Counted from the first letter of the stretch, positions 12,025 through 24,768 are shown. The stretch: 64,000 nucleotides of DNA from an uncultured Flavobacteriaceae bacterium (GCA_947500385.1 CANMSA010000007.1:116929-180928), one strand, 5' to 3'. Numbers and translations are program-made. Notes: generated from the letters alone by a model not told the origin.

Positions 12025-12922
12025 GGGGAATATTTTGAATTCATGTTAATTTTTTGGGGTTTCTATCAACTTTTCAAACGGCTCTTTTACGCTATGATCC
12101 AGATGTACACCTGCCCGCCACTGGTGCGTTTTACCAAGGCTTGCCTTGAGTTTTACGCGTACGCTTGTATGCATGGGATTGTACCAAGGATGTTAGCGAA
12201 AATTTAGTTTTGGAAAGTGAATGCTACCTGTGAATGCCATGGTATCGCACCAGCTATTACAAAGCTGACATGAACACCAATAAGCATATCGGGGCATTTC
12301 TAAGCTATGGCGGCGGATCGGAGAAACGGCGCAGTAGCATCGATTGGAATACAAGAAAGATTTTTAAAAAAATCTGAAGTAAGTAGGTTCTACCACTAAG
12401 GCAACGTTCAATCATAACATGTATGTAATTTTGGGTTACTTAAAAAAATACATGTTGGTTTGGCCATATATTGATACGGTCATTGCTTGGGGCATTTTAA
12501 AAACAATGTACCCGTACCAAATATAAGAAGTGGTAAAAGTACTTGTAATTAGCTAGTTATAACTGCTAATTTGCAAATTTGGATAACAAATATGAAGACC
12601 GTTTGCATTAAAAACCAGGGTTTGGAAAACTGGTTTTTACGGATATTCCCTTATTCCATAAGCGATAGCAGATGAATTTGAAACAGCGGTAGTTACGTGT
12701 AGATCATGATTTTTTTGACCTTAAGGAAAGTACTAAAGAGATCACCAAAAGAAGGGTCTTGTTCTCAAAAACCAGGATTTCTTGCGATAATTAACCTATT
12801 TCAGTCATAATAACTGGCAAGTTTTGGTTCAAAATGCCAAGGTCGGCAGTAGTAAAGTCGGCTTACCCGAGATGGCACAAACTCAAAAAACCGAGACTAT
12901 CCATTTTAATTAAGCGATAACC

Positions 12923-14023
12923 CTAATAATTTAAAAATTGTTTTTTGTACTGATTCGGTGTCATTCCCGTAGCTTCCTTAAAATTGGCGTAGAAGCTCGA
13001 CTCTGATTTGAAACCACTGTCTATGGCAATGGAAAAAATTGTTAGATTTTGATTTTCAGATTTTTGCAATAACTTCTTGGCTTCTTCGATTCTTTTTTCT
13101 TTTATAAACTGGCTAAAGCTTTTCCCCAGTTCATCGTTCAAAAACTTTGACAATAAGTAGGGTCGAATATCGAGTTTTTGAGCCAGTTTATGTTCGTTAA
13201 GTTCTGTATCCAAATAGAGCTTTTTTTCATTTATCTGCTCCAACACAAGGGACATTTCTTCGGAGAGGGGGGGATTGTGAGCATTTAAACCAGTTTGAAA
13301 ATTAGGAAACCCGGCAAGTATACGCGGATATCTTATGAAGAGATAGATGCTAATAAAAAGTATGAAACAAGTAAATATGATATAATTGAGATGCGTTATC
13401 GGCCTTATCATCATTAACGAGCTCTTGGTAGTTATTAGTACCTCGCTTAGAATGGAGAAGAGTAGATTAAAAAAACTGATATAGGTAATCACCGCTAAAA
13501 AAATAATCAAGGTTTTGGGCCACGTCAAGAGTTTTCTGTATTTATTCTTAAAAGATGTTTTAGCCAAACGAAAATCCGGTAGAATCTTCAATAGCAAAAT
13601 TAATTTCCATCCAAAGACTACGATTAAACTTCCCTTATGTAGCCGCGTTCCGATGTAATCATGAAAATCAAGGTCGTTTTTAAAACAAACAAAACCCAAC
13701 AGCAATAAGGACCAAATAAGACAGGGTGCAAAAAGTATTCGATAATCTATGGTGAGATTTTTGTTGAATATCTTTTTTAAGTAAATATAAAGTAGGGTAG
13801 GAAGCAGTAGATCTAAAATATCGGGCACCACCAATAATTGTGGGGTATTAAACTTAACTTCTGTAAACCGCAAAACATATTGAAACGTGATATTAGTAGA
13901 TATCACAAAAAAGATAAATGACAAAAGGTAATTGCCATACCCCTTTTTTACTAGGGGGATTACAATACCAACCAATACACTTTGAATTATTCCCCAGATG
14001 AATAAGGCAATAGTCATCCTCAA
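12923..14023 (-). CDS. Membrane-anchored AraC-family transcriptional regulator
   Basis: About 7 hydrophobic N-terminal segments; C-terminal LAQKLDI...SFSQFIKEKRIEEAK...IAIDSGFKSESSFYANFK. Confidence 0.9.
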   Translation of the reverse strand: MRMTIALFIWGIIQSVLVGIVIPLVKKGYGNYLLSFIFFVISTNITFQYVLRFTEVKFNTPQLLVVPDILDLLLPTLLYIYLKKIFNKNLTIDYRILFAPCLIWSLLLLGFVCFKNDLDFHDYIGTRLHKGSLIVVFGWKLILLLKILPDFRLAKTSFKNKYRKLLTWPKTLIIFLAVITYISFFNLLFSILSEVLITTKSSLMMIRPITHLNYIIFTCFILFISIYLFIRYPRILAGFPNFQTGLNAHNPPLSEEMSLVLEQINEKKLYLDTELNEHKLAQKLDIRPYLLSKFLNDELGKSFSQFIKEKRIEEAKKLLQKSENQNLTIFSIAIDSGFKSESSFYANFKEATGMTPNQYKKQFLNY

Positions 14024-14126: not shown

Positions 14127-15227
14127 CTACTTGTTTACAGCAAAAATCTCTTTTAACTGTTTGACCATACCTCCGTTCCCGGAGACGGTGATCTCACCAA
14201 TCTTTTCGGCGATTTTCTCCACATATTCCATCTCTTTCAACTTGAAGAGCATTTCGTTTTCTTCCATTAGTTTAGCGGTGTTCAGCAAACTTCGGGTAGA
14301 AGCGGTCTCTTCACGTCGTGTAATGGTATTGGCCTGTGCCTGTTTTTGTGCCACAAGCACTTGGTTCATGATAGCCTTCATTTCACCCGTTAAGATGACA
14401 TCTCGGATACCACAGTTCAGTACTTGTACGCCCAGGTCGGCCGCTGTTGTCTTGATTTCGGAAAATACCGCATCGGCGATGCGTTCCTTTCGCTCTAACA
14501 GCTCATCCAAGGTATAGGTGCCTATGTAGGCACGCAATACCAATTGAATGGCAACATACAACTGCTTTTCGTAGTCTTTGTTTTCCAACAAGGCCTTTTC
14601 AATAGCAACTATCTTATACCGGGTATAGCAGTTGATTCGAATAGCGGCCTTGTCCTTGGTCAACAATTCTTGCCCTGCGATTTCGAGTTGCAATTGTCGC
14701 ATATCGGCGCGTGCAATCTTTACCGAGGTATCGTTTTTCCAGAAGTGGTATACCCCACTGTCCAGAACCTTCACGAAGGTATCCTCGACCAGTAACAGCG
14801 CTTTTTCGTATGCCAAAATCTCCAATACACGAATGTAAGGGCGTAACAAAGGATGTCCTAGCAGCATTTTGCCAATGGGTTCGGTGATGTAGATTTTACT
14901 CAAATCGGCCATCACGAACTCATAATTGATCAATCCTTTCCAGAAAGCATATTTACCGGCTGCAAGCACTTTTTTCAAAGTCCCGTTTTCAGATACCAAT
15001 GCCAACTCCGCATCTTTTACCTCGATAACGTGTAACATTGCCTCCAAACCTTGGTCCTGTAGCAAAATCTCCAATGCTATCGGGGCCACAAAGGCTTTGG
15101 TGAGGTCGTATACCATCACCATGTTTCGTAGGCCTACCCAGTGTGTGCCTTGGGTAATAACGTTTTGGTAATCTCCATTTTTGAAGACCAAACCTACTTT
15201 TCCTGCATTGATTCGTACTCGTTTCAT
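14127..15227 (-). CDS. Slipin (SPFH/band-7) family protein
   Basis: GQELLTKDK, GIRDVIL and RREETASTRSLLNTAKLME motifs of the RtcB-associated slipin family. Confidence 0.9.
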   Translation of the reverse strand: MKRVRINAGKVGLVFKNGDYQNVITQGTHWVGLRNMVMVYDLTKAFVAPIALEILLQDQGLEAMLHVIEVKDAELALVSENGTLKKVLAAGKYAFWKGLINYEFVMADLSKIYITEPIGKMLLGHPLLRPYIRVLEILAYEKALLLVEDTFVKVLDSGVYHFWKNDTSVKIARADMRQLQLEIAGQELLTKDKAAIRINCYTRYKIVAIEKALLENKDYEKQLYVAIQLVLRAYIGTYTLDELLERKERIADAVFSEIKTTAADLGVQVLNCGIRDVILTGEMKAIMNQVLVAQKQAQANTITRREETASTRSLLNTAKLMEENEMLFKLKEMEYVEKIAEKIGEITVSGNGGMVKQLKEIFAVNK

Positions 15228-15630
15228 TATTCAAAATTTGTGTCCGCCAGTCGATTGACGGACGAACGGGTTAAACTATTTTCATTTATTATTAGTTGGT
15301 TTAATTCTCTTTTAAAAAACCGCAACTACAAATCATCTATTCGATACGGAAATATAGGTTTTCGAAGTTCGTTACGATTTGTTTTTCGGTATGCTTCGGT
15401 CGGTGTTGCCAATACTATGTATTGGTTTTTCCGAGGGAAGGATGTTCAAAAAAGAAATTGCCTTTCACATCAAAAATTCAGTATTTCAAAGTAGTTTCAA
15501 GACTGTTGATTCATCCGAAGAAAAACCAACCGACCTATACCTACGGTTTTTTGCCAATTATACGGAGTGACCGTCCGGTGGTCTTTTTACAAGTGACCTT
15601 CTTGTTCAGAATGGATTTCAAGTCCATATC

Positions 15631-15707
15631 CCACATTATGAGTGTGGTGCTCTACCAACTGAGCTAAGAGATCTAAAAAAAGTGACCTCTGCAGGAGTCG
15701 AACCTGC
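15631..15707 (-). ncRNA. Circularly permuted tRNA(CAT)-like module (T arm > closed acceptor stem > D arm > anticodon arm)
   Basis: Minus strand reads GCAGG-TTCGACT-CCTGC AGAGGTC-A CTTTTTTTA GATCTCT TA GCTC-AGTTGGTA-GAGC A CCACA-CTCATAA-TGTGG. AGAGGTC/GATCTCT form 7 bp, with the 3' half preceding the 5' half. Confidence 0.6.
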
Positions 15708-15710
15708 GCG

Positions 15711-15806
15711 TACTTCTGTTGTTCTAACCAGGCTGAACTACATCCCCATTTTTTGTGAAATGGTTTGTGGGGAAGGAGGGATTCGAACCCCCGACTTACA
15801 GATGTA
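15711..15806 (-). ncRNA. Circularly permuted tRNA-like (YrlA-topology) module lacking an anticodon loop
   Basis: TAC-A-TCTGT AAGTC GGGGG-TTCGAAT-CCCTC CTTCCCC [21-nt loop] GGGGATG TA GTTC-AGCCTGGTTA-GAAC A ACAGA-A-GTA. The acceptor stem has 6/7 pairs and the closing stem is 5+3 bp. Confidence 0.6.
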
Positions 15807-15932
15807 AGACCATTTTTTGGAAAACAGCCGAAACCTTCAAGTCAAGTTGCATATGAAGACCTAATACTTCTCAGTAAAACTTCACACAATAGTGCTATAC
15901 AGAAACACCCAACAAGACCCGCTTGATACTTT

Positions 15933-16082
15933 ATTCCCGCGAAAGCGGGAATCTTTTACGATTTCCCTATGCGAAGCGTAGGCCTCGCCAGGGAATCTTA
16001 TCTTTCAATGAACTTTAATAAACCTCGCAACACACCTTGTTGCTGCGAGGCACCCCCGCAAACCACAGCTTATGTGGTTTGC
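15933..16082. repeat. Cluster of four GC-rich palindromic hairpins (REP-like)
   Basis: attcccgc-gaaa-gcgggaat; ttccct...agggaa; cctcgca...tgcgagg; gcaaaccaca...tgtggtttgc. Confidence 0.55.
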
Positions 16083-16092
16083 ACTATATATT

Positions 16093-16435
16093 AAAAAGCG
16101 TACTGGGAATACCCACGCTTATGGACAAGCTTTCGTAGGAGTACGGCAAAAGCCTTCCCTACTTTTCCACGCGCTTTCCGTTGCTTTGGAAATCGCGTAC
16201 TTGTCCGATGCCAGATACATTGTAACCGTTCGGCGACTTAGACTCGGCCTGCATAGCGGCTTTGGCCGCGCTTTGCAATTACAGGGGTTGGCTCCCCCAC
16301 CGTTCATAGGTGTCCCCTTGCGGGGCGACCTACTAGAATGTTCACCGCATGGTATCGGTTTGCGACCGCTACCACCCCATATCTTGCAATGGGTTTAGGC
16401 AACTACTAGCTGCTACAATGCCCGAAGTCTTTTGC
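16093..16435 (-). ncRNA. Candidate large structured ncRNA B (~340 nt)
   Basis: No credible ORF. Hairpins CCCC-GCAA-GGGG, CGGT-CGCAA-ACCG and GCGGC-CAAA-GCCGC; long-range 7-bp pairs CATTGTA/TACAATG and GGACAAG/CTTGTCC; terminator-like 3' hairpin plus U-run. Confidence 0.6.
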
Positions 16436-16496
16436 TTTTCTGATGCTCCCGAATGAGCTAAGAGACTAATGGGTTGCTCTTGGGAATCGAACCCAA

Positions 16497-16890
16497 ACAA
16501 AAGGTTGGCTTAGAAGAAGGGCTTCGAGAATGGCTCCGTAGATTTTGGCCTACAAAATACCAACCTTCTTCTTGAGTGCCTCCCGGCACACGGTATGTGA
16601 AGCTACCGAACAGTTTCCTATCAGGTACCTCTGGTACTGCACCAAGCTCCGCTGGGTCGGATGCCCCATACGTAACCTAGTACTACAACTTTTCCTCTTG
16701 GTGTCTCCACCGCAAGCCTACACAATGTATCGGCTATAAGTCCCGAGGTTGCCTCAGCGGTCGCCCCCGGCGTATCGTGACTTATGTTGGTTGCTTGCTT
16801 ACCTGCACTACCTTCCGAAGAAGGCAGTCTCCGCCTGCGATGCCCGCATGCAGATTTATCCTTGTTACCAAGTTTATCTGAGGACGATAA
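16497..16890 (-). ncRNA. Candidate large structured ncRNA A (~400 nt)
   Basis: No credible ORF. ACTGCCTTC-TTCG-GAAGGTAGT, GGTG-GAGA-CACC, GTGCC-GGGA-GGCAC, ATAAGTC/GACTTAT and AGAAGAAGG/CCTTCTTCT helices. Confidence 0.6.
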
Positions 16891-16939
16891 GCCGCCCCGT
16901 CATTTACAAGAAATGACGATTTTATTAGAAGAAGCCCAT

Positions 16940-17070
16940 ATGGACTTCTCTATTTCAATGAACGTTCCTCTGAGGCCGACGCGCCATCTGGCCCATTCGC
17001 AAAAAATGTCCACTGGACATTTTCTTAACGCGCTGGCCTACCACAGCTCTTCCCTTTGAGCTAAAGAGGC
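16940..17070 (-). pseudogene. tRNA 5'-half remnant interrupted by a palindromic element
   Basis: GCCTCTT TA GCTC-AAAGGGAA-GAGC followed by the palindrome AAAATGTCCAGTGGACATTTT; no matching 3' acceptor strand. Confidence 0.5.
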
Positions 17071-17172
17071 ATTTTGTTAAAGCCCCACAACACTCCTTTG
17101 TTGTTGTGAGGCACTCCCGCAAACCTCTTTTTGAAAGGCTAGTTTTTAATTACACAACAAAATTGAATCATA

Positions 17173-17195
17173 ACTACGCAATGATTATGCGTAGT
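17173..17195. promoter_or_regulatory. Probable WYL-regulator operator, perfect palindrome ACTACGCA-N7-TGCGTAGT
   Basis: Same arms as at 40597-40619; lies just upstream of a minus-strand CAATTTTG -7-like element. Confidence 0.75.
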
Positions 17196-17219
17196 AAAAA
17201 TGTTTTCAAGACAATTGCT

Positions 17220-17714
17220 TTATACCGCCATGTCCGCACAGGACGAGCTTGCAAACGCAAACGGTTTTGCCTTAAAAACAAATCCCATTCCAAGGATATA
17301 GCCCATCGCTTCTTTTAGTGCCACATTCGATTCAAATTTGGGATCCGTATTAATATCGGCGTGCACTTCAAGCTCGACATTGTATTTGTCCAAAATGTGG
17401 CAGATTGCATAAGCTGTCTCGACGGACATGGCCACTTCTTTTAACATACGCTCTTTGATACTGATGTTAGTAGTGCCCTTTTGATTTTTGATAAACATAA
17501 AACCACCTTTACCTTCCCTAAGTATGACCACTACAGTAGCATAGGCAATGTAAGACTTGTAGGCTTGTGAATCGGACCCTACACAAATCTTAATTCGATA
17601 TCCTGCCTTTTGCTCCCTGACAATGGCCTGCTCAACCAGAGTTGTGATGGGCTGTTCAAAAACCTTCCCGTTAAAATTTCTCCATTTATTCACTGCTATT
17701 TTCATAATTTTCAA
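17220..17714 (-). CDS. Ribonuclease H-like YkuK (DUF458) family protein
   Basis: CVGSDSQ, LKEV, LEVHADIN and KP.AFA.SSCAD motifs; start probably at 17705 or 17714. Confidence 0.85.
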   Translation of the reverse strand: MKIMKIAVNKWRNFNGKVFEQPITTLVEQAIVREQKAGYRIKICVGSDSQAYKSYIAYATVVVILREGKGGFMFIKNQKGTTNISIKERMLKEVAMSVETAYAICHILDKYNVELEVHADINTDPKFESNVALKEAMGYILGMGFVFKAKPFAFASSSCADMAV

Positions 17715-17728
17715 TCATTTTTTTGTTT

Positions 17729-17827
17729 TGGAACATACTGGGATGGAACCCTTCGACTTTGCCCAGGACAGGCCCGGTACCTTTGGTACTTAAAACCAAC
17801 GTGCACACCTACTACACTGCTGTTCCC
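17729..17827 (-). pseudogene. tRNA-Leu(TAA)-like, degenerate, with REP-like insert in T arm
   Basis: GGGAACA...TTGGT-TTTAAGT-ACCAA...ATGTTCC-A; insert ccttcgactttgcccaggacagg on the + strand. Confidence 0.5.
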
Positions 17828-17832
17828 TTTTG

Positions 17833-17905
17833 GGTGACTTGAGAGATTCGAACTCTGTTCTTCGCTTTCACACAGCGATGTTTTACCACATAAACTAAAG
17901 TCACC
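17833..17905 (-). tRNA. tRNA-His(GTG)
   Basis: 8-bp acceptor GGTGACTT/AAGTCACC (G-1), anticodon arm TCGCT-GTGTGAA-AGCGA, T loop TTCGAAT. Confidence 0.75.
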
Positions 17906-17911
17906 ATGTTG

Positions 17912-17982
17912 TTCATCCGATAGGATTCGAACCTATACGACAAGAATCAAAGTCTTGTGTGCTCCCATTACACAACGGATGA
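17912..17982 (-). tRNA. tRNA-Gln(TTG)
   Basis: TCATCCG/CGGATGA; CAAGA-CTTTGAT-TCTTG; ATAGG-TTCGAAT-CCTAT. Confidence 0.85.
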
Positions 17983-18053
17983 ATTTTGTAGGCCTAAAAG
18001 GATTTATTCATGTCACTTCTATTGTTTTTTAACCGTATTCATGAATGCTCCTC

Positions 18054-18167
18054 ATTTGAACCCATACCACAAGGGTCGAAATGCTTTTCAGCATTCACGA
18101 ACTCCTTAATTTAATTAAACAAGGGCGTGAGCTAAACCTTGTATGCTAACCATTACATCACGGGTCT
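18054..18167 (-). pseudogene. tRNA-Arg(TCG) with 52-nt anticodon-loop insert and missing 3' end
   Basis: AGACCCG TG ATGT-AATGGTTA-GCAT A CAAGG TTT[52 nt]TTTCGAC CCTTG TGGT ATGGG TTCAAAT, after which the sequence diverges. Confidence 0.6.
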
Positions 18168-18184
18168 ATTTGCAAGCTTAACAA

Positions 18185-18256
18185 TCCCGAGACTTCGGGA
18201 GAACTCTTGCCTCAAGGGTAGAAACCTTACGTGCTATCCATTACTCTTTAGACTAC
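18185..18256 (-). pseudogene. Degenerate tRNA-Arg(TCT) with T-loop palindrome
   Basis: AAGG-TTTCTAC-CCTT, then GAG-TTC-[TCCCGAAGTCTCGGGA]; the 3' acceptor is lost. Confidence 0.5.
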
Positions 18257-18259
18257 TTT

Positions 18260-18335
18260 TGGTACTCCACCTTGGATTCGAACCAAGACTAAACAGGGCT
18301 TAAACCCGATGCCTCTTCCGTTGGGCTAGTAGAGC
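18260..18335 (-). tRNA. tRNA-Leu(TAA), short variable loop, CCA encoded
   Basis: GCTCTAC/GTGGAGT-A-CCA; loop TTTAAGC; CTTGG-TTCGAAT-CCAAG. Confidence 0.7.
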
Positions 18336-18451
18336 AGTGATAAAAGGAGAGCGATTCCCTTCGACTGTGCTCAGGATACACTTCTCTTCTGTTTTACTTT
18401 TTACAAAATTTCAAAAGAACTTACCGAATACAGCTATTTCCATTTTTTTAG

Positions 18452-18525
18452 TACAGGGAGAGCGATTCGAACGCTCAAATACCTGATTCTAAATCAGGAG
18501 CCTTTGCCATTTTGGCCATCCCTGC
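18452..18525 (-). tRNA. tRNA-Leu(TAG), short variable loop
   Basis: GCAGGGA/TCCCTGT; CCTGA-TTTAGAA-TCAGG; GAGCG-TTCGAAT-CGCTC. Confidence 0.8.
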
Positions 18526-18531
18526 AAATCG

Positions 18532-18615
18532 TTGAGGCATTAGTCCCGACACTTCGGGAGAACCTAAGACTCCCGTGTTAAAAGGACGGTACTCTACCAA
18601 CTGAGTTATACCTCA
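18532..18615 (-). pseudogene. tRNA-Lys(TTT) with 16-nt palindrome in T loop
   Basis: TGAGGTA/TGCCTCA; loop CTTTTAA; TTAGG-TTC-[TCCCGAAGTGTCGGGA]-CTAA. Confidence 0.7.
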
Positions 18616-18620
18616 CTTTG

Positions 18621-18702
18621 TACTCTGTAAGGCCCCGACGCTTCGGGGGAACCCCTGTTTCCTGATAGAAAGTCAGGCGTACTACCATTATACGAACAGA
18701 GC
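18621..18702 (-). pseudogene. tRNA-Glu(TTC) with 16-nt palindrome in T loop
   Basis: GCTCTGT/ACAGAGT; CCTGA-CTTTCTA-TCAGG; AGGGG-TTC-[CCCCGAAGCGTCGGGG]-CCTT. Confidence 0.7.
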
Positions 18703-18716
18703 AAAAGTCTGAGAAG

Positions 18717-18867
18717 TCCCGCATTAGCGGGACGACCTCCCGCTTCCAAAGCGGGCAAACAACTCCCGACACTTAGGTCGGTATCCTGACTTTCGCGATG
18801 GCGAAACGTCAGGACCCGTACCTTCCCGATAGACAGTCGGGTGCTCTAGGCTTTGAACTACGGTACT
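18717..18867 (-). pseudogene. tRNA-Asp(GTC) 5' part followed by a stack of palindromic inserts
   Basis: GTTC-AAAGCCTA-GAGC, CCCGA-CTGTCTA-TCGGG, ACGGG-T, then a ~50-nt double hairpin and two more palindromes; no 3' acceptor. Confidence 0.6.
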
Positions 18868-18870
18868 TTG

Positions 18871-18954
18871 TGGAAGTAGTAGTCCCGACACTTCGGGAGA
18901 ACCCTTAATTCCACATAGAAAGTGTGGCGTCTTAGCCGTTTGACCAACGTAGCC
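18871..18954 (-). pseudogene. Chimeric tRNA-Glu(TTC) with T-loop palindrome
   Basis: GGCTACG...CCACA-CTTTCTA-TGTGG AAGGG-TTC-[TCCCGAAGTGTCGGGA]-CTAC TACTTCC-A; the 3' strand does not pair with the 5' acceptor. Confidence 0.6.
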
Positions 18955-18959
18955 TTTTG

Positions 18960-19031
18960 CGGTTCATACGAGAATCGAACTCGTATCTCCCGAGAGACAG
19001 TCGGGAAGGATTGCCATTACCCCAATGAACC
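18960..19031 (-). tRNA. tRNA-Asp(GTC)
   Basis: GGTTCAT/ATGAACC-G; CCCGA-CTGTCTC-TCGGG; ACGAG-TTCGATT-CTCGT. Confidence 0.85.
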
Positions 19032-19039
19032 CAATTTTG

Positions 19040-19111
19040 TACACCTACTAGGATTCGAACCCGGACTGAAAGAGTAGAAGTCTTTAGTGCTATCCCTTAC
19101 ACCATAGATGC
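19040..19111 (-). tRNA. tRNA-Arg(TCT)
   Basis: GCATCTA/TAGGTGT; AAAGA-CTTCTAC-TCTTT; T loop TTCGAAT with one T-stem mismatch. Confidence 0.8.
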
Positions 19112-19117
19112 TTCTTG

Positions 19118-19199
19118 TGGGAATGATAGGATTCGAACCTATTAAGCCAAAGCACCAGTTTTACAGACTGGCTCAACCCTCCATCGTTGACGCATTCCC
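19118..19199 (-). tRNA. tRNA-Tyr(GTA)
   Basis: GGGAATG/CATTCCC; CCAGT-CTGTAAA-ACTGG; longer variable region; ATAGG-TTCGAAT-CCTAT. Confidence 0.85.
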
Positions 19200-19206
19200 T
19201 TTTTTG

Positions 19207-19279
19207 AGACAAGGACAGGATTCGAACCTGTAAAAAACAGATTTGCAGTCTGCCACCTTAACCATTCAGCCACCTTGTC
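19207..19279 (-). tRNA. tRNA-Cys(GCA)
   Basis: GACAAGG/CCTTGTC with U73; GCAGA-CTGCAAA-TCTGT; ACAGG-TTCGAAT-CCTGT. Confidence 0.85.
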
Positions 19280-19283
19280 TATT

Positions 19284-19434
19284 TGGCGGAGTTGAGCCCC
19301 AAGGCTTCGAGGGAATACCGACGCTTGGGTCGGTATCCTGACTTTCACGAACGTGAAACGTCAGGACCTCCACCGCCTCTGGTGCGGCCTTGTTTAGCAG
19401 ACAAGTGTAACAAACCAGTATTTACCTACTCTCC
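19284..19434 (-). pseudogene. tRNA-Ser(GCT) with composite hairpin insert in T loop
   Basis: GGAGAGT...CTTGT-CTGCTAA-ACAAG, long variable arm GCCGC/GCGGT, GGAGG-T-[~70-nt insert]-...ACTCC-G-CCA. Confidence 0.65.
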
Positions 19435-19443
19435 ATTTTTTTG

Positions 19444-19517
19444 TCTGAGAGACAGGATTCGAACCTGCAACCTCCTGCATCCAAGGCAGGTAAACCAAAC
19501 CATCGTTATCCTCTCAG
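19444..19517 (-). tRNA. tRNA-Pro(TGG)
   Basis: CTGAGAG/CTCTCAG; CCTGC-CTTGGAT-GCAGG; GCAGG-TTCGAAT-CCTGT. Confidence 0.85.
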
Positions 19518-19522
19518 TGTTG

Positions 19523-19610
19523 CGGAAGGAGTGGGGGTCGAACCCACACGAGGCGTTAACTCCTAACTGTTTTCAAAACAGCGACCACCACCAAATTGGT
19601 TTGCCCTTCC
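19523..19610 (-). tRNA. tRNA-Ser(TGA)
   Basis: GGAAGGG/TCCTTCC-G; GCTGT-TTTGAAA-ACAGT; long variable arm; GTGGG-TTCGACC-CCCAC. Confidence 0.85.
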
Positions 19611-19616
19611 ATCTTG

Positions 19617-19691
19617 TTGACCCGATGGGAATCGAACCCATGACCTCGACCTTAAAAGGGCCTTGCTCTAACCTGGCTGAGCTACGAATCA
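19617..19691 (-). tRNA. tRNA-Lys(TTT)
   Basis: TGATTCG/CGGGTCA; GCTC-AGCCAGGTTA-GAGC; loop CTTTTAA; ATGGG-TTCGATT-CCCAT. Confidence 0.85.
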
Positions 19692-19740
19692 ATATTTAAA
19701 TTTTACCCAATCCCTCTCTGAGGGTTTCAATGAACATCAT

Positions 19741-19774
19741 AAAAAAAGCGCCTCCTGTTCTGGGAGACGCTTTT
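19741..19774 (-). terminator. Attenuator terminator 1 (upstream of tRNA array)
   Basis: GCGTCTCC-CAGAACA-GGAGGCGC followed by T7. Confidence 0.75.
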
Positions 19775-19796
19775 GTATTGCTAGGCTTTATTTGAG

Positions 19797-19979
19797 TTAA
19801 ACCCATATATACTTCTCCCGTTTATTATTGTACAGTCTTTCTCCATAAAAATATAAACTCGATTTCGGTGAGTTTATCGGTGTGAGTGTATGTACCATTT
19901 CTTTTCTCATTTTTTCAAATTCGTAAGAACCCCAACAACGTTGATTTTTTTTCCTATGTGTATGTCGTTGTGTTTTCAT
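19797..19979 (-). CDS. Putative 60-aa leader peptide (MKTQRHTHRKK...KREKYIWV)
   Basis: Starts about 20 nt after a CATCTTTG element (20000-20007), ends just before terminator 1, and contains GGGAGA complementary to the terminator 5' arm. Confidence 0.5.
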   Translation of the reverse strand: MKTQRHTHRKKNQRCWGSYEFEKMRKEMVHTLTPINSPKSSLYFYGERLYNNKREKYIWV

Positions 19980-20220
19980 TTGTCTTTTTTTCGACAGGGC
20001 AAAGATGAAAACGATTTTTAAATTATACAAGAAAAAAATTAATTTAATTTATTGATAATCAAATAGTTAAATTAAAATATAGACAATAGAATCCCTGTCC
20101 GTCATAGTGCGGATTTTGAACATTTATTACAACTGTCTGTCTACCAATTGTTTTCTGTTTCAACTATGTTATTTTATTTGTTTGCTACTTTTCACATTTT
20201 ACTTTAAAAAATTCCACAAA

Positions 20221-20250
20221 AAAAAGCGCCCAATTGTAATTGGACGCTTT
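20221..20250 (-). terminator. Attenuator terminator 2
   Basis: AAAGCGTCCAAT-TACA-ATTGGGCGCTTT followed by a U-run. Confidence 0.75.
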
Positions 20251-20283
20251 CATTTTATCGCTTAATCGAGTTATTTCATAGAA

Positions 20284-20394
20284 TCAATTCTTGGATAAAG
20301 TCACATAGCGTCCGTTTCGCTCACTATATTCTGAGCGAAAATCGCAGAGCCAAAGCTCTTGTATTTGGATGATATGTAACTTTCTCGGTTTCAT
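20284..20394 (-). CDS. Putative 36-aa leader peptide (MKPRKLHIIQIQELWLCDFRSEYSERNGRYVTLSKN)
   Basis: Directly after a CATCTTTG element; contains GGACGCT (20307-20313) complementary to the terminator-2 5' arm. Not in the ORF track. Confidence 0.5.
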   Translation of the reverse strand: MKPRKLHIIQIQELWLCDFRSEYSERNGRYVTLSKN

Positions 20395-20471
20395 TTGCTG
20401 TACAAAGATGTAATTTTTAATGGTTACAACACCATGATTTGTTCCTTTTTGTTTAAGAAAGAGCTTTTTAC

Positions 20472-20975
20472 TTAGGGGATATCCGATTCTAACTTCCTTT
20501 TGATTCTACTTTCCTCCGCCTCAATAAAGAATATCTCGTCGTTGACATAGGTATTCTTTTTTGCTTCGCTCAAGTGTTTCAGTGACAGCTTGTAATTTTC
20601 AGTTGTTTCCAAAGCAAACGCCGAAACACAATATAAACTTGCTTTATCAATACCCTTAATGGTAAAACCAAAATTGATCAGTTTAAAGGCTCTCTCGATT
20701 TCATCTGCCCAAATTAAGTAGGTAGCATACATAGGATATACCTCTAAATAGTCGGTGCTGATAGCGATTACCCTATCAAAACAGTCAAAAGCTTTGGCAT
20801 ATTGATTCAAGTTTTTTGCGTATACCTCTCCAAGCATACATAGTACCGCACAGTAATTTTCGTTGTAAGAAAGGGCGTAATTTAGCGATTCACACACGTC
20901 AATCCAATCAACGCAAGGGCCATTCATCGCTTCTTTGGCCTTTAAGTAATAGGTGTCTGCTATCGTTAGTTCCAT
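20472..20975 (-). CDS. TPR-like protein (paralog 2)
   Basis: LTIADTYYLKAK...LNYALSY; helical TPR-like pattern; close paralog of 21556-22086. Confidence 0.8.
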   Translation of the reverse strand: MELTIADTYYLKAKEAMNGPCVDWIDVCESLNYALSYNENYCAVLCMLGEVYAKNLNQYAKAFDCFDRVIAISTDYLEVYPMYATYLIWADEIERAFKLINFGFTIKGIDKASLYCVSAFALETTENYKLSLKHLSEAKKNTYVNDEIFFIEAEESRIKRKLESDIP

Positions 20976-21056
20976 AGTTGTTTTCTTAATTGGCTTTTAG
21001 TTTTGCCGTTTAGCCTTACATTTTTAATGCTCGTCTTGATCTTTAGAGTCGTTTCC
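20966..21056 (-). pseudogene. Degenerate duplicate of prfH 3' end
   Basis: Aligns with 22077-22168; ends QLRKQLWN* versus prfH QLRKQQWD* and overlaps the TPR start in the same way. Confidence 0.7.
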
Positions 21057-21555: not shown

Positions 21556-22086
21556 TTATTTTCGAAGTTTCTTTTTTTGTCTTTTGGAAGCAGGCTTCTT
21601 ATCCAATTTCAACTTTTTTTTGATTCGCTTTTCCTCTCCTTCGATAAAAGAAAAGTAGTCTTCGTTAAAAGAGTACTTTTTGGACTTCTTCAGATATTTC
21701 AGAGCAATTTGATAGTGCTCTTGGGTTTCCGCGGCATAGGCGGAAAGCCACAACAGACTGCCTTTTGATACGCCCTTTAGGGTCAATGCAAAAGCGATTA
21801 GATTTGTCGCTCTTTCAATTTCATCTGCCCAGATCAAGTATAAGGTGTACATGGGATAAACGTCCAAGTAATAGTTGTCTAAGGCGATTACTTTATCAAA
21901 ACATTCGAAAGCTTTCTCATATTGATGTAAGTTTCTGGCATACACGCTACCAAGAAGGCAAAGTGCCGCACAATGATTTTCGTCATAGGACAGGGCATAG
22001 TTTAACGATTCGCATACTTCGTCCCAGTCATAGCCGCGCGCGGCCTTGGCCTTTAAGTAGTAGGTGTCTGCTATGGTTAGTCCCAT
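21556..22086 (-). CDS. TPR-like protein (paralog 1), coupled to prfH
   Basis: MGLTIADTYYLKAK; TPR-like helices; Lys-rich tail; overlaps the prfH stop. Confidence 0.8.
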   Translation of the reverse strand: MGLTIADTYYLKAKAARGYDWDEVCESLNYALSYDENHCAALCLLGSVYARNLHQYEKAFECFDKVIALDNYYLDVYPMYTLYLIWADEIERATNLIAFALTLKGVSKGSLLWLSAYAAETQEHYQIALKYLKKSKKYSFNEDYFSFIEGEEKRIKKKLKLDKKPASKRQKKKLRK

Positions 22087-22769
22087 TGTTGTTTTCTTAG
22101 TTGGTTTTTTAGTTGTTGCCGTTTTGGCCTGTATTTTTTAAGTGTTTTTTGAGGTTTAAAGTCGGTACCTTTAAAAATACGAACAGGATTTCCACGCTGT
22201 AAATCCAAATGATTTTCCCATTGATCGGTCATCCTGCTTTTTAATTGCGCTAGGTTGGCTTCCTTCACCTTTTCCTTCAACCGAGCGATAGCCAATTTTT
22301 TATTTTGATGTTGAGAACGACTGTCCATCACTACTACCTGAACGCCCGTTGGGGTATGAATGGCGCGAACAGCGGAGTTTACTTTGTTCACATGCTGTCC
22401 TCCTGGACCCTTGCTCCGCATGGTCTGAAATGAGATTTCTTTTTCAGTTACCTCCATGGTCTGCGTCATTTTTAATTCGAAAGCGCCGATGAACCAGTTT
22501 TTCCGTTTATGATGTTTTCGAAATCTCGAGGTGCCGATCCATTGAATGGTACCCAGCCAAGTTGCTAAAAAAGTAGCTAGGTCCTTCCCTTTTAAGCAAA
22601 TTGTAACCGATTGTACAGTGCCGTTTTGGGTGCCTTTTTCCTGATGTAGGATGCTATGCTGAATACCTGCTTTTTTGGTTTCCTGCAAGAATAGTTTAAG
22701 TACTTGGGCAACCACCCAACCACATTCCGAGGGCCCTCTACCAGCTGTTATCTGTAGTATTTTTTCCAT
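22077..22769 (-). CDS. prfH: Peptide chain release factor H
   Basis: LQITAGRGPSEC, WIGTS, RKNWFIG and GPGGQHVNKVNSAVRA..PTG (GGQ); adjacent to rtcB. Confidence 0.93.
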   Translation of the reverse strand: MEKILQITAGRGPSECGWVVAQVLKLFLQETKKAGIQHSILHQEKGTQNGTVQSVTICLKGKDLATFLATWLGTIQWIGTSRFRKHHKRKNWFIGAFELKMTQTMEVTEKEISFQTMRSKGPGGQHVNKVNSAVRAIHTPTGVQVVVMDSRSQHQNKKLAIARLKEKVKEANLAQLKSRMTDQWENHLDLQRGNPVRIFKGTDFKPQKTLKKYRPKRQQLKNQLRKQQWD

Positions 22770-24495: not shown

Positions 24496-24740
24496 ACTAC
24501 TTCAGTTAAAAACGTGTGTGTTTAATTTCGATGCAAATCTAAAATGCTTTTTTGGATTTACCAAATAAAAATCAATTTAATTAATTGATTATCAATTAAT
24601 TATGATTAAAATTAGACATGAGAATTCCGGTCCGTTTTAGAACGGATATCAGCATATTTAACGAACCTGCTGTTTATCAAATGATTAGCTTTCAATTAGC
24701 ATTCTTTGAGAATTTGGATGACTACCAAAAAAATTACATA

Positions 24741-24768
24741 AAAAAAGCGCCCAATTTCTTGGACGCTC
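24741..24768 (-). terminator. Attenuator terminator 4
   Basis: AGCGTCCAA-GAAA-TTGGGCGCT followed by a U-run; near-identical to terminator 2. Confidence 0.75.

Follow-up and report, generated by a model that had tools for sequence, protein, structure and literature searches.

The tRNA array and its canonical units

Why a bacterium should carry a long row of tRNA genes whose anticodons it already possesses is the question raised by the 64,000-nucleotide stretch of DNA analysed here (the window), which comes from an uncultured member of the Flavobacteriaceae. An earlier note had read positions 17729-19691 as an inducible-looking backup set of 19 tRNA genes, enriched for ribotoxin targets and possibly of phage or mobile origin. 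An array is indeed present: it covers 1963 nt of the minus strand (19691-17729), and its 19 units are densely packed and all co-oriented. ARAGORN, Rfam and alignments nevertheless divide these units into 11 that are canonical and 8 that are aberrant. The host is a marine flavobacterium, and the array lies inside an island of RNA-damage repair genes.

ARAGORN called 11 tRNA genes, nine of which score above the gathering score of the Rfam tRNA model (29 bits), while Ser and Tyr match as long-arm tRNAs. Numbered together with the aberrant units from U1 to U19, they are as follows.

19616..19691, minus strand: U1, tRNA-Lys(TTT), intact; Rfam tRNA 57.2 bits; 97% identity to the Lys gene of array G006
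19522..19610, minus strand: U2, tRNA-Ser(TGA), intact, long variable arm; 87% identity to arrays L069 and L045
19443..19517, minus strand: U3, tRNA-Pro(TGG), intact; Rfam 33.7 bits
19206..19279, minus strand: U5, tRNA-Cys(GCA), intact; Rfam 64.1 bits
19117..19199, minus strand: U6, tRNA-Tyr(GTA), intact, long variable arm
19039..19111, minus strand: U7, tRNA-Arg(TCT), intact; Rfam 49.3 bits; 84% identity to G006
18959..19031, minus strand: U8, tRNA-Asp(GTC), intact; Rfam 53.9 bits; 99% identity to G006
18451..18525, minus strand: U13, tRNA-Leu(TAG), intact by cloverleaf; Rfam 60.7 bits
18260..18335, minus strand: U14, tRNA-Leu(TAA), CCA encoded; Rfam 43.3 bits
17911..17982, minus strand: U17, tRNA-Gln(TTG), intact; Rfam 62 bits
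17832..17904, minus strand: U18, tRNA-His(GTG), intact, with G-1; Rfam 50.9 bits

Spacers are short, as noted before, and mostly measure 2-8 nt; the exceptions are two gaps of 115 and 47 nt. The locus thus holds at least 10 co-stranded tRNA genes at a spacing tight enough for a single transcript, one of the features that mark an L-array. All 11 anticodons of the intact genes already occur among the 37 housekeeping tRNA genes outside the array and none is new, in agreement with a backup-type set. Within the window the array has no tRNA for Gly, Ala, Val, Thr, Phe, Trp, Asn or Ile, as observed earlier, nor for Met. The description of T1 and G-U-rich acceptor stems was borne out for Lys and Gln, both of which begin with a T1-A72 pair; the Lys stem has two T-G pairs in addition. 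That only two units encode CCA is roughly right, but this scarcity is not distinctive, since most housekeeping tRNA genes of the same genome likewise lack an encoded CCA.

Eight aberrant units and their origin

The eight extra units lack the combination that characterizes a canonical elongator tRNA, namely a 7-nt T loop (T54-T55-C56-R57-A58) on a 5-bp stem together with a matching 7-bp acceptor. They are listed here with one further segment (X).

19284..19434, minus strand: U4, Ser(GCT) relic (alignment to the canonical Ser GCT gene of G014; fold)
18871..18954, minus strand: U9, chimera in which a hairpin joins a Glu(TTC) 5' part to the 3' end of Tyr (alignment to G006 Glu)
18706..18866, minus strand: U10, chimera leading from an Asp(GTC) 5' part to a Pro(TGG) 3' part (alignments to the Asp and Pro pairs of G014 and G005)
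18621..18702, minus strand: U11, Glu(TTC) with a T-loop hairpin (alignment; Rfam 25.2 bits, below the gathering score)
18533..18614, minus strand: U12, Lys(TTT) with a T-loop hairpin (alignment, fold)
18336..18450, minus strand: X, non-genic segment made up of a spacer and an incomplete Leu(TAG) 3' copy whose T loop is altered (alignment)
18173..18257, minus strand: U15, Arg(TCT) relic with a T-loop hairpin (alignment)
18030..18167, minus strand: U16, unit with a Gln-like 5' half (alignments)
17729..17826, minus strand: U19, unit of Phe ancestry whose anticodon is TAA (Rfam 26 bits, gathering score 29; alignments)

In four of these units (U9, U11, U12 and U15) a 16-nt GC hairpin replaces T-loop residues 57-61, and larger inserts are found in U4, U10 and U16. 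Acceptor strands are unmatched in U4, U9, U10, U15 and U16; in U15 the stem is broken because the 5' acceptor strand was replaced. U4, for which neither ARAGORN nor the Rfam tRNA models gave a call, carries in its T arm a double hairpin of ~50 nt and a hairpin of the 16-nt type (~60 nt inserted), and its acceptor 3' strand is 2 nt short. Direct repeat D6 is common to U4 and U10. In the latter, two hairpins, the first of them long, separate the Asp(GTC) 5' part from the Pro(TGG) part, in which the T loop is replaced by TCCCGCTAATGCGGGA. U9, whose Tyr-derived 3' end reads CTACTACTTCCA, is the junction of two array halves. In U11 the four stems are otherwise whole and the anticodon loop is CTTTCTA (T37); its MFE structure keeps the cloverleaf shape, the T arm being lengthened. 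Outside its hairpin, U12 is 98% identical to the canonical Lys gene of G014, one change giving a C-C mismatch in the anticodon stem.

Although 11 of the isoacceptors listed in the earlier note were confirmed, others have to be reassigned. The supposed Arg(TCG) gene, U16, matches the 5' half of the array Gln(TTG) gene of relative L022 over its first 34 nt (34/34). Its anticodon loop is interrupted by a 59-nt insert and its T loop by a further one, and the 3' acceptor strand is missing; the insert is also found in G006 (89% over 131 nt) and L021 (83% over 107 nt). The supposed second Leu(TAA) gene, U19, has the acceptor sequence GGAACAG and a 28-nt insert in the variable region, and aligns to G014 Phe and to a G006 unit with anticodon GAA; its function is doubtful. 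Ser(GCT) is defective, and since both Glu units are among the aberrant ones, the array has no intact Glu gene. Segment X is conserved with G006 (L013:9862-9973).

Alignments to relatives' arrays showed that the second copies of Lys, Glu, Asp and Arg are the damaged ones. Judged by these alignments, two array variants have fused into one, and the duplicate Lys, Glu, Asp and Arg units stem from this event; the enrichment argument, much of which leaned on their doubling, is weakened accordingly. Small palindromic or structured inserts, located in T, D or anticodon loops, and recombination among them have inactivated about 40% of the units.

A separate tRNA lineage with atypical loops

A comparison with the housekeeping tRNAs, as the earlier note had proposed, placed the array tRNAs in a lineage of their own. 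They share 56-76% identity with the isoacceptors of their own cell but 82-99% with arrays in other genera for 10 of the 11 genes (Tyr, 73%), showing a tRNA lineage that is distinct from the housekeeping set and travels with the island. Its distribution is patchy, PrfH plus array occurring in 6 of 16 genomes of the genus. Among 80 PrfH loci, PrfH and TPR proteins are present in all complete loci and RtcB in 75; an array of at least 5 tRNAs follows the near-universal RtcB-PrfH-TPR in 15 of the 80, to which come this window and further arrays, partly undetected or cut off.

Across genera the units follow the order Ser-Ser-Cys-Tyr-(Trp)-Asp-Pro-Glu-(Lys)-Leu-Leu-(Arg)-Gln-His-Phe-Arg. In a set of 16 arrays, Asp is represented in 16, Cys in 15, Pro, Leu and Glu in 14, Gln, His and Tyr in 13, and Ser and Arg in 12; rarer are Lys and Phe (9), Trp and Asn (7), Gly (5), and Val and Met (1). 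Ala, Thr and Ile tRNAs occur in none of the 16. Sister arrays do carry Phe, Trp, Asn and Gly, so that the lack of these four in the window is a loss peculiar to this locus. The proposed enrichment for ribotoxin targets is weakened when only intact genes are counted (6 of the 8 classical target amino acids within 10 of the 20 amino acids, p = 0.085). The family set of 16 arrays includes 8 of 8 (p = 0.024, post hoc), a composition signal that essentially samples one evolutionary lineage many times. With p about 0.02-0.08, the enrichment is suggestive and unproven.

Array and housekeeping tRNAs differ systematically at anticodon-loop positions 32, 37 and 38. T37 is found in array Asp (17/17; the loop of U8 is CTGTCTC, with a pyrimidine at 37) and in array Glu (14/14), whereas housekeeping tRNAs have a purine at this position in 37 of 37. 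Array Pro (U3 included), His, Gln and Leu(TAG) have A37 where their housekeeping counterparts have G37. That these features are invariant across genera argues for purifying selection. The Leu genes are equally distinct: all 23 array copies measure 74-77 nt (75 nt in U13, 76 nt in U14) and have a short variable arm in place of the class II long arm of bacterial tRNA-Leu, compared with 82-85 nt for housekeeping Leu; A73 is present, also in U13. LeuRS probably tolerates such short variable arms.

The island and the putative gate in front of the array

The array occupies a fixed place in a conserved Bacteroidota island with the order rtcB, prfH, TPR, array, YkuK-like nuclease, GOLLD RNA, tRNA-like RNA, SPFH, which is identical in G005, G006 and G014, including the part downstream of the array. 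In the window its elements are as follows.

24251-22860, minus strand: rtcB (Pfam RtcB, E 5e-83)
22769-22077, minus strand: prfH (Pfam RF-1; TIGR03072 239.2 bits, cut-off 166.65)
22086-21556 and 20975-20472, minus strand: pair of small TPR-protein paralogues, encoded after prfH and before the array (Pfam; repeat D2)
20222..20430, minus strand: second upstream cassette of TTTG promoter-like box, ORF and terminator (sequence analysis)
19744..20030, minus strand: gate of Bacteroidetes-type promoter region, leader ORF and terminator (sequence analysis)
17220..17714, minus strand: YkuK/DUF458 RNase H-like gene (Pfam PF04308, E 3.6e-33)
16572-16098, minus strand: GOLLD RNA core (Rfam RF02032; 124.2 bits, the gathering score being 150 bits; E 2.6e-33 for positions 1-416 of the model)
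15800-15603, minus strand: tRNA-like / YrlA-like RNA (Rfam match of 32 bits)
15227-14127, minus strand: SPFH/Band-7 protein gene (Pfam)

The rtcB gene adjoins prfH in the same orientation, and its product scores 145 bits with TIGR03073, the proteobacterial PrfH-partner model, against a cut-off of 271.8. The YkuK-like gene begins about 15 nt past the last array unit, a position kept in 8 array-bearing loci, and GOLLD homologues score 138 bits in G005, 128 in G014 and 117 in G006. The flanks within about 10 kb contain T9SS glycosidases, an AraC regulator and a VIT-vWA protein.

Within the gate, a leader ORF of 60 codons (19979-19797, minus strand) is followed by an intrinsic terminator (19774-19744, minus strand) of the form AAAGCGTCTCC-N7-GGAGGCGCTTT plus a T-run, about 53 nt before U1. 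A leader ORF with the motif H..SPK..F and a terminator precede 14 of the 18 arrays examined. The second cassette comprises a 36-codon ORF (20394-20284, minus strand) and a terminator (20251-20222, minus strand) that recurs before rtcB (repeat D9). With a conserved leader ORF and an intrinsic terminator placed ahead of the array, the description as inducible-looking fits the architecture.

On a slight balance of probability, we read the array as a stress-gated, supernumerary spare tRNA operon of the L-array type, set in a Bacteroidota RNA-damage response island and partly decayed in this strain. Points against this explanation are the 8 defective units out of 19, which include every Glu unit, the single-lineage composition signal with its weakness for the intact genes (p = 0.085), and the RtcB score below the TIGR03073 cut-off. 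U37 and the short-armed Leu could equally mean that some array tRNAs are unused in translation.

Comparison with known systems

L-arrays, exemplified by the trn operon of Anabaena sp. PCC 7120, are horizontally spread and supernumerary (Santamaria-Gomez et al. 2021, PMC8421152). The Anabaena array, otherwise silent, responds to translation inhibitors with a 100- to 1000-fold induction and is co-regulated with rtcB; 23 of its 26 genes are functional and 3 are pseudogenes (PMC8421152). Common to both are many tightly packed co-stranded genes, isodecoder redundancy without new anticodons, a patchy occurrence among relatives, rtcB and other RNA-processing genes nearby, some pseudogene units and, it appears, conditional expression, which is read here from the architecture. 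The present array differs in its phylum, Bacteroidota, and in its fixed place in an rtcB-prfH / GOLLD / SPFH island. Its gate is a leader ORF with a terminator, whereas Anabaena has promoter direct repeats; its amino-acid set is restricted and never includes Ala, Thr or Ile; its Leu tRNAs are short-armed throughout, and Asp and Glu have U37. It also contains far more disabled units (8 of 19 compared with 3 of 26).

A second comparison is offered by the mycobacterial tRNA clusters in which GOLLD occurs together with an HNH endonuclease (PMC6582537), and by tRNA islands of phages or prophages that contain GOLLD or ROOL. The mycobacterial clusters also adjoin GOLLD and a tRNA-like element and are thought to be horizontally acquired, but they hold nearly complete sets of 32-37 tRNAs (PMC6582537); the island studied here has neither a phage context nor an HNH gene, and its GOLLD, placed downstream of the tRNA genes, has a palindromic operator of its own. 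Altered anticodon loops are also known from phage tRNAs (van den Berg et al. 2023, PMC10264068); these are extra tRNAs whose loops likewise differ from the host's beside the anticodon, and were proposed to escape host anticodon nucleases, replacing tRNAs depleted by VapC, PrrC and colicin D-/E5-type enzymes; the array here is chromosomal and cellular, and linked to repair enzymes. As in the RtcB2-PrfH rescue/repair module (PMC9304027, PMC9223846), prfH stands next to rtcB, although the RtcB found here falls below the cut-off of the proteobacterial partner model. As in the predicted Band-7 / b7a-tRNA / RtcB system (Burroughs and Aravind 2016, as cited in bioRxiv 10.1101/312249), a tRNA-like RNA precedes SPFH/Band-7; the parts of the published descriptions of these two systems considered here include neither a tRNA array nor GOLLD.

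Alternative explanations

The extent of damage raises the possibility that the array is now mostly a decaying passenger, once functional in an ancestor of the island, contributing nothing to fitness today and kept by linkage to rtcB-prfH and the GOLLD/SPFH unit while palindromes that target tRNA loops, and recombination, erode it. The eight broken or chimeric units, with the stem mismatch of U12 and the five unmatched acceptor strands, are consistent with this. So is array G005, which is eroded further (3 genes remain canonical, and of its 8 hairpin sites 6 lie at T loops), and about 60 of the 80 PrfH loci have no array at all, indicating that the repair genes do not need one. Against it, 11 genes retain perfect cloverleaves at 2-8-nt spacing, sister arrays (G014, L021, L045, L070 and others) are fully canonical with gene order kept across genera, the gate of leader and terminator is conserved, and the invariant loop features point to purifying selection. 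We regard passenger status as unlikely.

It is also conceivable, though distinctly improbable, that the array RNAs act mainly outside decoding, the units with a hairpin in place of the elbow being deliberate non-translating mimics. They might serve as decoys or sponges for tRNA-cleaving toxins, an idea raised for Anabaena (PMC8421152), as ligation cofactors or substrates of RtcB, for which tRNA-like cofactors were proposed (bioRxiv 10.1101/312249), or as cargo or partners of the GOLLD cage, proposed to hold tRNAs (bioRxiv 10.1101/2024.12.08.627333), or of the tRNA-like b7a RNA. The two loops from which the elbow is built, T and D, are precisely those that the hairpin replaces, and U11 still folds as a cloverleaf. 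A pyrimidine at 37 in Asp and Glu and a short-armed Leu are unusual for decoding tRNAs. Yet the same 16-nt hairpin is found independently of the island, in mere 3' or 5' tRNA fragments beside housekeeping tRNA genes genome-wide and in 11 of 150 genera of the family, and hairpin units form dead chimeras. Canonical units, moreover, keep identity features of the decoding type (G-1 in His, A73 in Leu, long arms in Ser and Tyr).

A phage-derived cluster serving codon compensation of a mobile element, the origin suggested earlier, is very improbable: GOLLD RNAs and tRNA islands are typical of phages and prophages, but phage similarity is confined to single tRNAs (70-83% identity; any one phage record covers at most 4% of the region), genes of phage, integrase or transposase type are absent for about 10 kb to each side, 10 flanking proteins gave no phage structural, replication or integrase matches (Pfam, PHROGs), no anticodon is added beyond the host set, and the location inside a chromosomal operon set is constant.

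A proposed model: a stress-gated spare tRNA operon

Under the stress-gated spare operon that we favour, and as judged from its architecture, transcription would normally end at the terminator and read through once translation of the leader falters. The polycistronic transcript would then be processed into spare tRNAs that sustain translation, while RtcB would reseal broken RNA and PrfH would free damaged ribosomes. Because of their atypical loops (U37 in Asp and Glu, A37 for G37), these tRNAs may be cut poorly by anticodon nucleases or may function without anticodon-loop modifications. Plausibly, only 11 tRNAs of this array can serve. With 11 of the 19 units intact, the locus therefore gives the impression of a gated tRNA reserve in partial decay in this strain.

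Intact genes of the array

ARAGORN called 11 tRNA genes on the minus strand between 19691 and 17832: Lys TTT, Ser TGA, Pro TGG, Cys GCA, Tyr GTA, Arg TCT, Asp GTC, Leu TAG, Leu TAA, Gln TTG and His GTG. Nine of the 11 scored above the gathering score of the Rfam tRNA model, and Rfam places the Ser and Tyr genes among the long-arm members of the tRNA clan. The gaps between the called genes are filled by sub-threshold tRNA-like Rfam matches:

17729-17826, tRNA-like, 26 bits
18639-18702, tRNA-like, 25 bits
18548-18612, tRNA-like, 19 bits
18889-18953, tRNA-like, 17.5 bits

The earlier note had counted 19 tRNA genes here. All 19 units can indeed be seen (U1 to U19, numbered along the minus strand from 19691), but only 11 of them are normal genes by ARAGORN and Rfam, and no intact Glu gene is present among the 19.

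Genomic context

The array lies in an island whose other members, all on the minus strand, are as follows:

24251-22860, minus, rtcB (Pfam E 5e-83)
22769-22077, minus, prfH (TIGR03072, 239 bits against a cut-off of 166.65)
between prfH and the cassettes and array, minus, two small TPR proteins
before the array, minus, two promoter/short-ORF/terminator cassettes
17714-17220, minus, YkuK/DUF458 RNase H-like gene, starting 15 nt past the last unit
16572-16098, minus, GOLLD RNA (124 bits, E 2.6e-33, full model length)
15800-15603, minus, tRNA-like/YrlA-like RNA
15227-14127, minus, SPFH/Band-7 protein

The island is flanked by T9SS-secreted glycosidases, an AraC regulator and a VIT-vWA protein, and its order is the same in three other genomes of the genus (G005, G006 and G014). 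Among 80 PrfH loci from Flavobacteriaceae and other Bacteroidota, the RtcB-PrfH-TPR combination is near-universal, PrfH and TPR being found in all complete loci and RtcB in 75. Arrays of at least five called tRNAs occur in 15 of these 80 loci, in addition to the window and to further arrays that have been eroded or are truncated at a contig end; their position is always between the TPR and SPFH genes, often with the YkuK gene at the array end. Within the genus, PrfH is above cut-off in 6 of 16 genomes, and array sequence was found in five of the six, the sixth (G012) giving no match. No phage, integrase or defence-system matches were found in the flanks or the island, and membership of a known defence system was set aside, PADLOC returning zero matches for seven island proteins. 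The two TPR genes are paralogues, with 87% identity over 71 nt at their 5' ends (20928-20998 and 22039-22109).

A strong terminator (19774-19744), consisting of a 12-bp stem and a T run, is located 53 nt before U1, with a 60-codon ORF (19979-19797) and a Bacteroidetes-like TTTG box upstream of it; a second cassette occupies 20430-20222. Of the 18 arrays examined, 14 are preceded by a short ORF that shares an H..SPK..F motif and, after it, by a terminator, a count made with a simple terminator scan that missed the terminator in three Tenacibaculum loci (in which the ORF is present) and in the eroded G005 array (L028). Because leader ORF and terminator recur before the arrays, the sequences support control of the array by conditional read-through. 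The terminator of a pre-array cassette is also repeated before rtcB (20206-20235 and 24727-24756). A WYL-type palindrome of 23 nt, ACTACGCA-N7-TGCGTAGT, was considered as an array regulator and rejected, since it sits past the YkuK gene and before the GOLLD RNA (17173-17195) and no copy precedes the array; two more copies, at ~38735 and ~40595, are ~21-23 kb away.

Lineage and signatures of the array tRNAs

The 11 intact array genes are 56-76% identical to the isoacceptors of their own genome, whereas 10 of the 11 are 82-99% identical to array genes of other genera (Tyr, 73%). These identities place the array in a lineage apart from the housekeeping tRNAs. All of its anticodons are already represented among the 37 housekeeping genes. 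Encoded CCA, considered as a marker of foreignness, is not diagnostic because it is rare in the array and housekeeping sets alike, most housekeeping genes being without it too.

Amino-acid counts over 16 arrays were Asp 16; Cys 15; Pro, Leu and Glu 14; Gln, His and Tyr 13; Ser and Arg 12; Lys and Phe 9; Trp and Asn 7; Gly 5; Val and Met 1; and Ala, Thr and Ile 0. As these counts show, the array family takes in the split codon boxes, the amino acids with six codons, and Pro, and is without most four-codon family boxes and also without Ile and Met. The classical targets of PrrC-type, zymocin-type, colicin E5 and colicin D nucleases are the tRNAs of eight amino acids. The tRNAs of these eight are likewise listed as classical anticodon-nuclease targets in PMC10264068. 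All eight amino acids are in the array family set (post hoc hypergeometric p = 0.024); for the window, the hypergeometric p is 0.025 when the broken Glu units are included and 0.085 for intact genes only. The conserved gene order makes these arrays in effect a single lineage, so that the statistics are no more than suggestive.

The loop signatures are more telling than the target composition. At position 37, the base 3' of the anticodon, T is found in 17 of 17 array Asp and 14 of 14 array Glu genes (Asp 18959-19031 and Glu 18621-18702 in the window, and the sister arrays); a purine occupies this position in each of the 37 housekeeping tRNAs. The array genes for Pro, His, Gln and Leu TAG carry A37 in place of the housekeeping G37. 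In bacteria, tRNA-Leu normally belongs to class II; the 23 array Leu genes all measure 74-77 nt and have a short variable arm, compared with 82-85 nt for the housekeeping genes. The array Leu genes (18260-18335 and 18451-18525 in the window, and the sister arrays) keep A73. Such unvarying peculiarities speak for selection acting on the array tRNAs and would fit either independence of nucleases or modification, or a non-decoding role.

Structure of the aberrant units

Homologous arrays are present in four further genomes of the genus, and in the G014 sister array 16 of 16 genes are canonical. The aberrant units of the window were aligned one by one with canonical orthologues from these sister arrays. 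U12 (18614-18533) is 98% identical to the G014 Lys gene, except that GAATC at T-loop residues 57-61 has been swapped for a 16-nt GC palindrome (the hairpin, TCCCGAAGTGTCGGGA) and that one change in the anticodon stem creates a C-C mismatch. U11 (18702-18621) is a Glu gene with a T-loop replacement like that of U12; its remaining stems are intact, and at minimum energy it folds as a cloverleaf whose T arm is extended. U9 (18954-18871) joins the 5' part of a Glu gene to the hairpin and then to the array Tyr gene's 3' end (CTACTACTTCCA), and U15 (18257-18173) is an Arg TCT gene with the hairpin and a foreign 5' end. In U4 (19434-19284), a Ser GCT gene, the T arm holds a 31-nt long hairpin, a 20-nt hairpin and one of the 16-nt type, and two bases are missing from the acceptor 3' strand. 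U10 (18866-18706) begins as Asp GTC, continues with the long hairpin of U4 and ends in the 3' part of a Pro TGG gene, whose T loop has been swapped for TCCCGCTAATGCGGGA. Since the corresponding Pro gene of G005 has hairpins in both the D loop and the T loop, U10 looks as though the sequence between two inserts had been deleted. U19 (17826-17729) combines the array Phe gene's acceptor with the anticodon TAA, compared with GAA in G006, and its variable region holds a 28-nt insert; a partial 3' copy of Leu TAG occupies 18450-18336. The G005 sister array (L015, 8500-9530) is more eroded than that of the window, with three canonical genes and eight hairpin sites, and its Cys gene has a different insert of ~50 nt in the T loop.

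The unit previously read as an Arg TCG gene does not hold as such. The 5' half of U16 (18167-18030) is identical to a Gln gene, a 59-nt insert interrupts the anticodon loop, another insert lies in the T loop, and the 3' acceptor strand is absent. The 59-nt insert is common to G006 and the sister array L021, so that three genomes have it, each time joined to another 5' half (window, 18030-18167; L013, 10049-10190; L021, ~12902-13010). Within it, a 19-codon ORF follows TAAGGAG, and a stretch of 12 nt is complementary to the T-loop insert of U16 itself. Introns excised and rejoined by the neighbouring RtcB were considered for the 16-nt hairpin and for the larger inserts. For the T-loop hairpin this was rejected, since no excision yields a T loop of 7 nt that has A58 and C61, and the identical hairpin also occurs in gene fragments. 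Removal of 52 nt from U16 would give a TTTCGAC loop, yet the T arm and the 3' acceptor strand are absent and U16 is therefore unable to become a tRNA. An Rfam search of 15000-21000 (E up to 10) found no known ribozymes or riboswitches in the inserts, only tRNA-clan matches, GOLLD and noise.

Four stretches in the first part of the array are closest to the G006 array (U1, 97% identity; U7, 84%; U8, 99%; 5' part of U9, 93%). Starting with the 3' end of U9, both the best matches and the unit order (Asp, Pro, Glu, Lys, Leu TAG, Leu TAA, Arg TCT, Gln, His, Phe) are of the G014/L021/L022 type. Hence two array variants have been fused head to tail, with a hairpin at the junction, and it is this fusion that supplied a second copy each of Lys, Glu, Asp, Arg TCT and Pro, which are the damaged ones. 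The duplicates had been taken as enrichment, but these second copies do not testify to selection for extra copies.

The hairpin in the genome, genus and family

The motif GTTC-YCCCGARGNNTCGGGR has 22 copies in the own genome, most of them in tandem partial 3' copies of the housekeeping Gly, Leu CAA, Tyr, Asp, Cys, Phe and Ala genes, where it is always residues 57-61 that are replaced. Upstream of Leu CAA, Leu TAG and Arg ACG lie 5' fragments in which it is the D loop that the hairpin replaces, and the housekeeping Asp copies also hold the two larger hairpins of U4 and U10. Many housekeeping tRNA genes are trailed by one to four tandem copies of their own 3' part with the T-loop hairpin; the partial Gly copies, with a period of 67 nt, retain both CCA and an acceptor stem that matches. 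The sites, by contig of the own genome, are:

C1:756296-756560, C8:80554-80890, C4:33700-33950, C25:9029-9530, hairpin copies
C14:5345-5470, C23:77310-77390, C31:38300-38720, hairpin copies
C8:80428, C34:7146, C1:303531, further hairpin copies
C23:77028-77306, C105:59-322, C2:283179-283445, GIY-YIG ORFs of ~93 aa
C1:70095-70340, C1:70474-70719, GIY-YIG ORFs of ~93 aa

A GIY-YIG ORF of 93 aa lies between tRNA-Phe and its hairpin-bearing 3' copy, and homologues directly follow tRNA-Leu GAG; these may be homing-type elements that drive the duplications. The motif was found in 8 of 16 genomes of the genus and in 11 of 150 genera of the family, the reversed-motif control giving zero occurrences in both searches, and a search of IMG/VR returned one irrelevant match. 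Within the genus, all 6 PrfH-positive genomes have it, as do 2 of 10 PrfH-negative ones (p = 0.0035, without correction for phylogeny). Covariation is seen at the hairpin's outer pair, which is T..A or C..G. In the T variant, the stem (TCCCGA/TCGGGA) has exactly the sequence of the anticodon stem of U8, the array tRNA-Asp (tCCCGActgtctcTCGGGa; 18990-19013 in the window, compared with hairpins at 18899-18914, 18560-18575 and 18201-18216), which could be a coincidence or a clue to the origin of the hairpin.

We read the aberrant units as the outcome of this family-wide hairpin process, followed by recombination between copies. A further reading takes the hairpin as non-random, the mark of a dedicated elbow-replacing element or process of the Flavobacteriaceae that turns tRNA genes and fragments of them into tRNA mimics lacking the elbow (T loop and D loop), with array units such as U11 serving as stable non-decoding RNAs alongside the RtcB/GOLLD/SPFH system, be it as decoys, ligation guides or cage cargo; we consider this quite improbable.

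Discussion

The closest known kind is the L-array, a long supernumerary tRNA gene array that is horizontally spread and has rtcB nearby (PMC8421152). In Anabaena, translation inhibitors induce such an array 100- to 1000-fold; of the 26 genes in it, 23 are functional, and the array helps the cells to survive (PMC8421152). Clusters of tRNA genes beside GOLLD are known in mycobacteria and phages, repair of colicin-E3-damaged ribosomes by PrfH-RtcB is established in E. coli, and a Band-7/b7a-tRNA/RtcB system is predicted. No paper naming GOLLD together with RtcB was found in the literature searched. The combination of genes in the island and the array-specific tRNA signatures set this array apart within the L-array kind.

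The best explanation, which we hold with moderate confidence, is that the array is a gated spare-tRNA operon of an RNA-repair island that has partly decayed in this strain. The array described in the earlier note is confirmed in part, and its interpretation as a backup set enriched for ribotoxin-targeted tRNAs is partly supported. That the array is a decaying passenger seems unlikely to us, the damaged units standing beside signatures that argue for selection. Less likely again are array RNAs acting as non-decoding decoys or cofactors, a role with which the same signatures are compatible. The phage origin once suggested is not borne out, and codon compensation for a phage is very improbable, as the flanks have no phage or integrase matches and blastn against 50,697 phage records gave single-tRNA matches only.

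Among long extra tRNA arrays, functional data exist only for that of Anabaena. Here, an array family is hard-wired between an rtcB-prfH operon for ribosome repair and a GOLLD/tRNA-mimic/SPFH unit, the GOLLD RNA being a giant one, in marine flavobacteria that are culturable and non-pathogenic; cultured relatives with the island include Zobellia uliginosa and strains of Aquimarina and Tenacibaculum. The window also shows how such an array dies, with small palindromes replacing the elbow loops and then recombining; no earlier description of palindromic T-loop replacement was found in the literature searched. The fixed signatures of the family (U37 in Asp and Glu, A37 for G37, short-arm Leu and no Ala, Thr or Ile) make the idea of a spare, damage-proof tRNA set directly testable, with clear predictions on nuclease resistance and aminoacylation.
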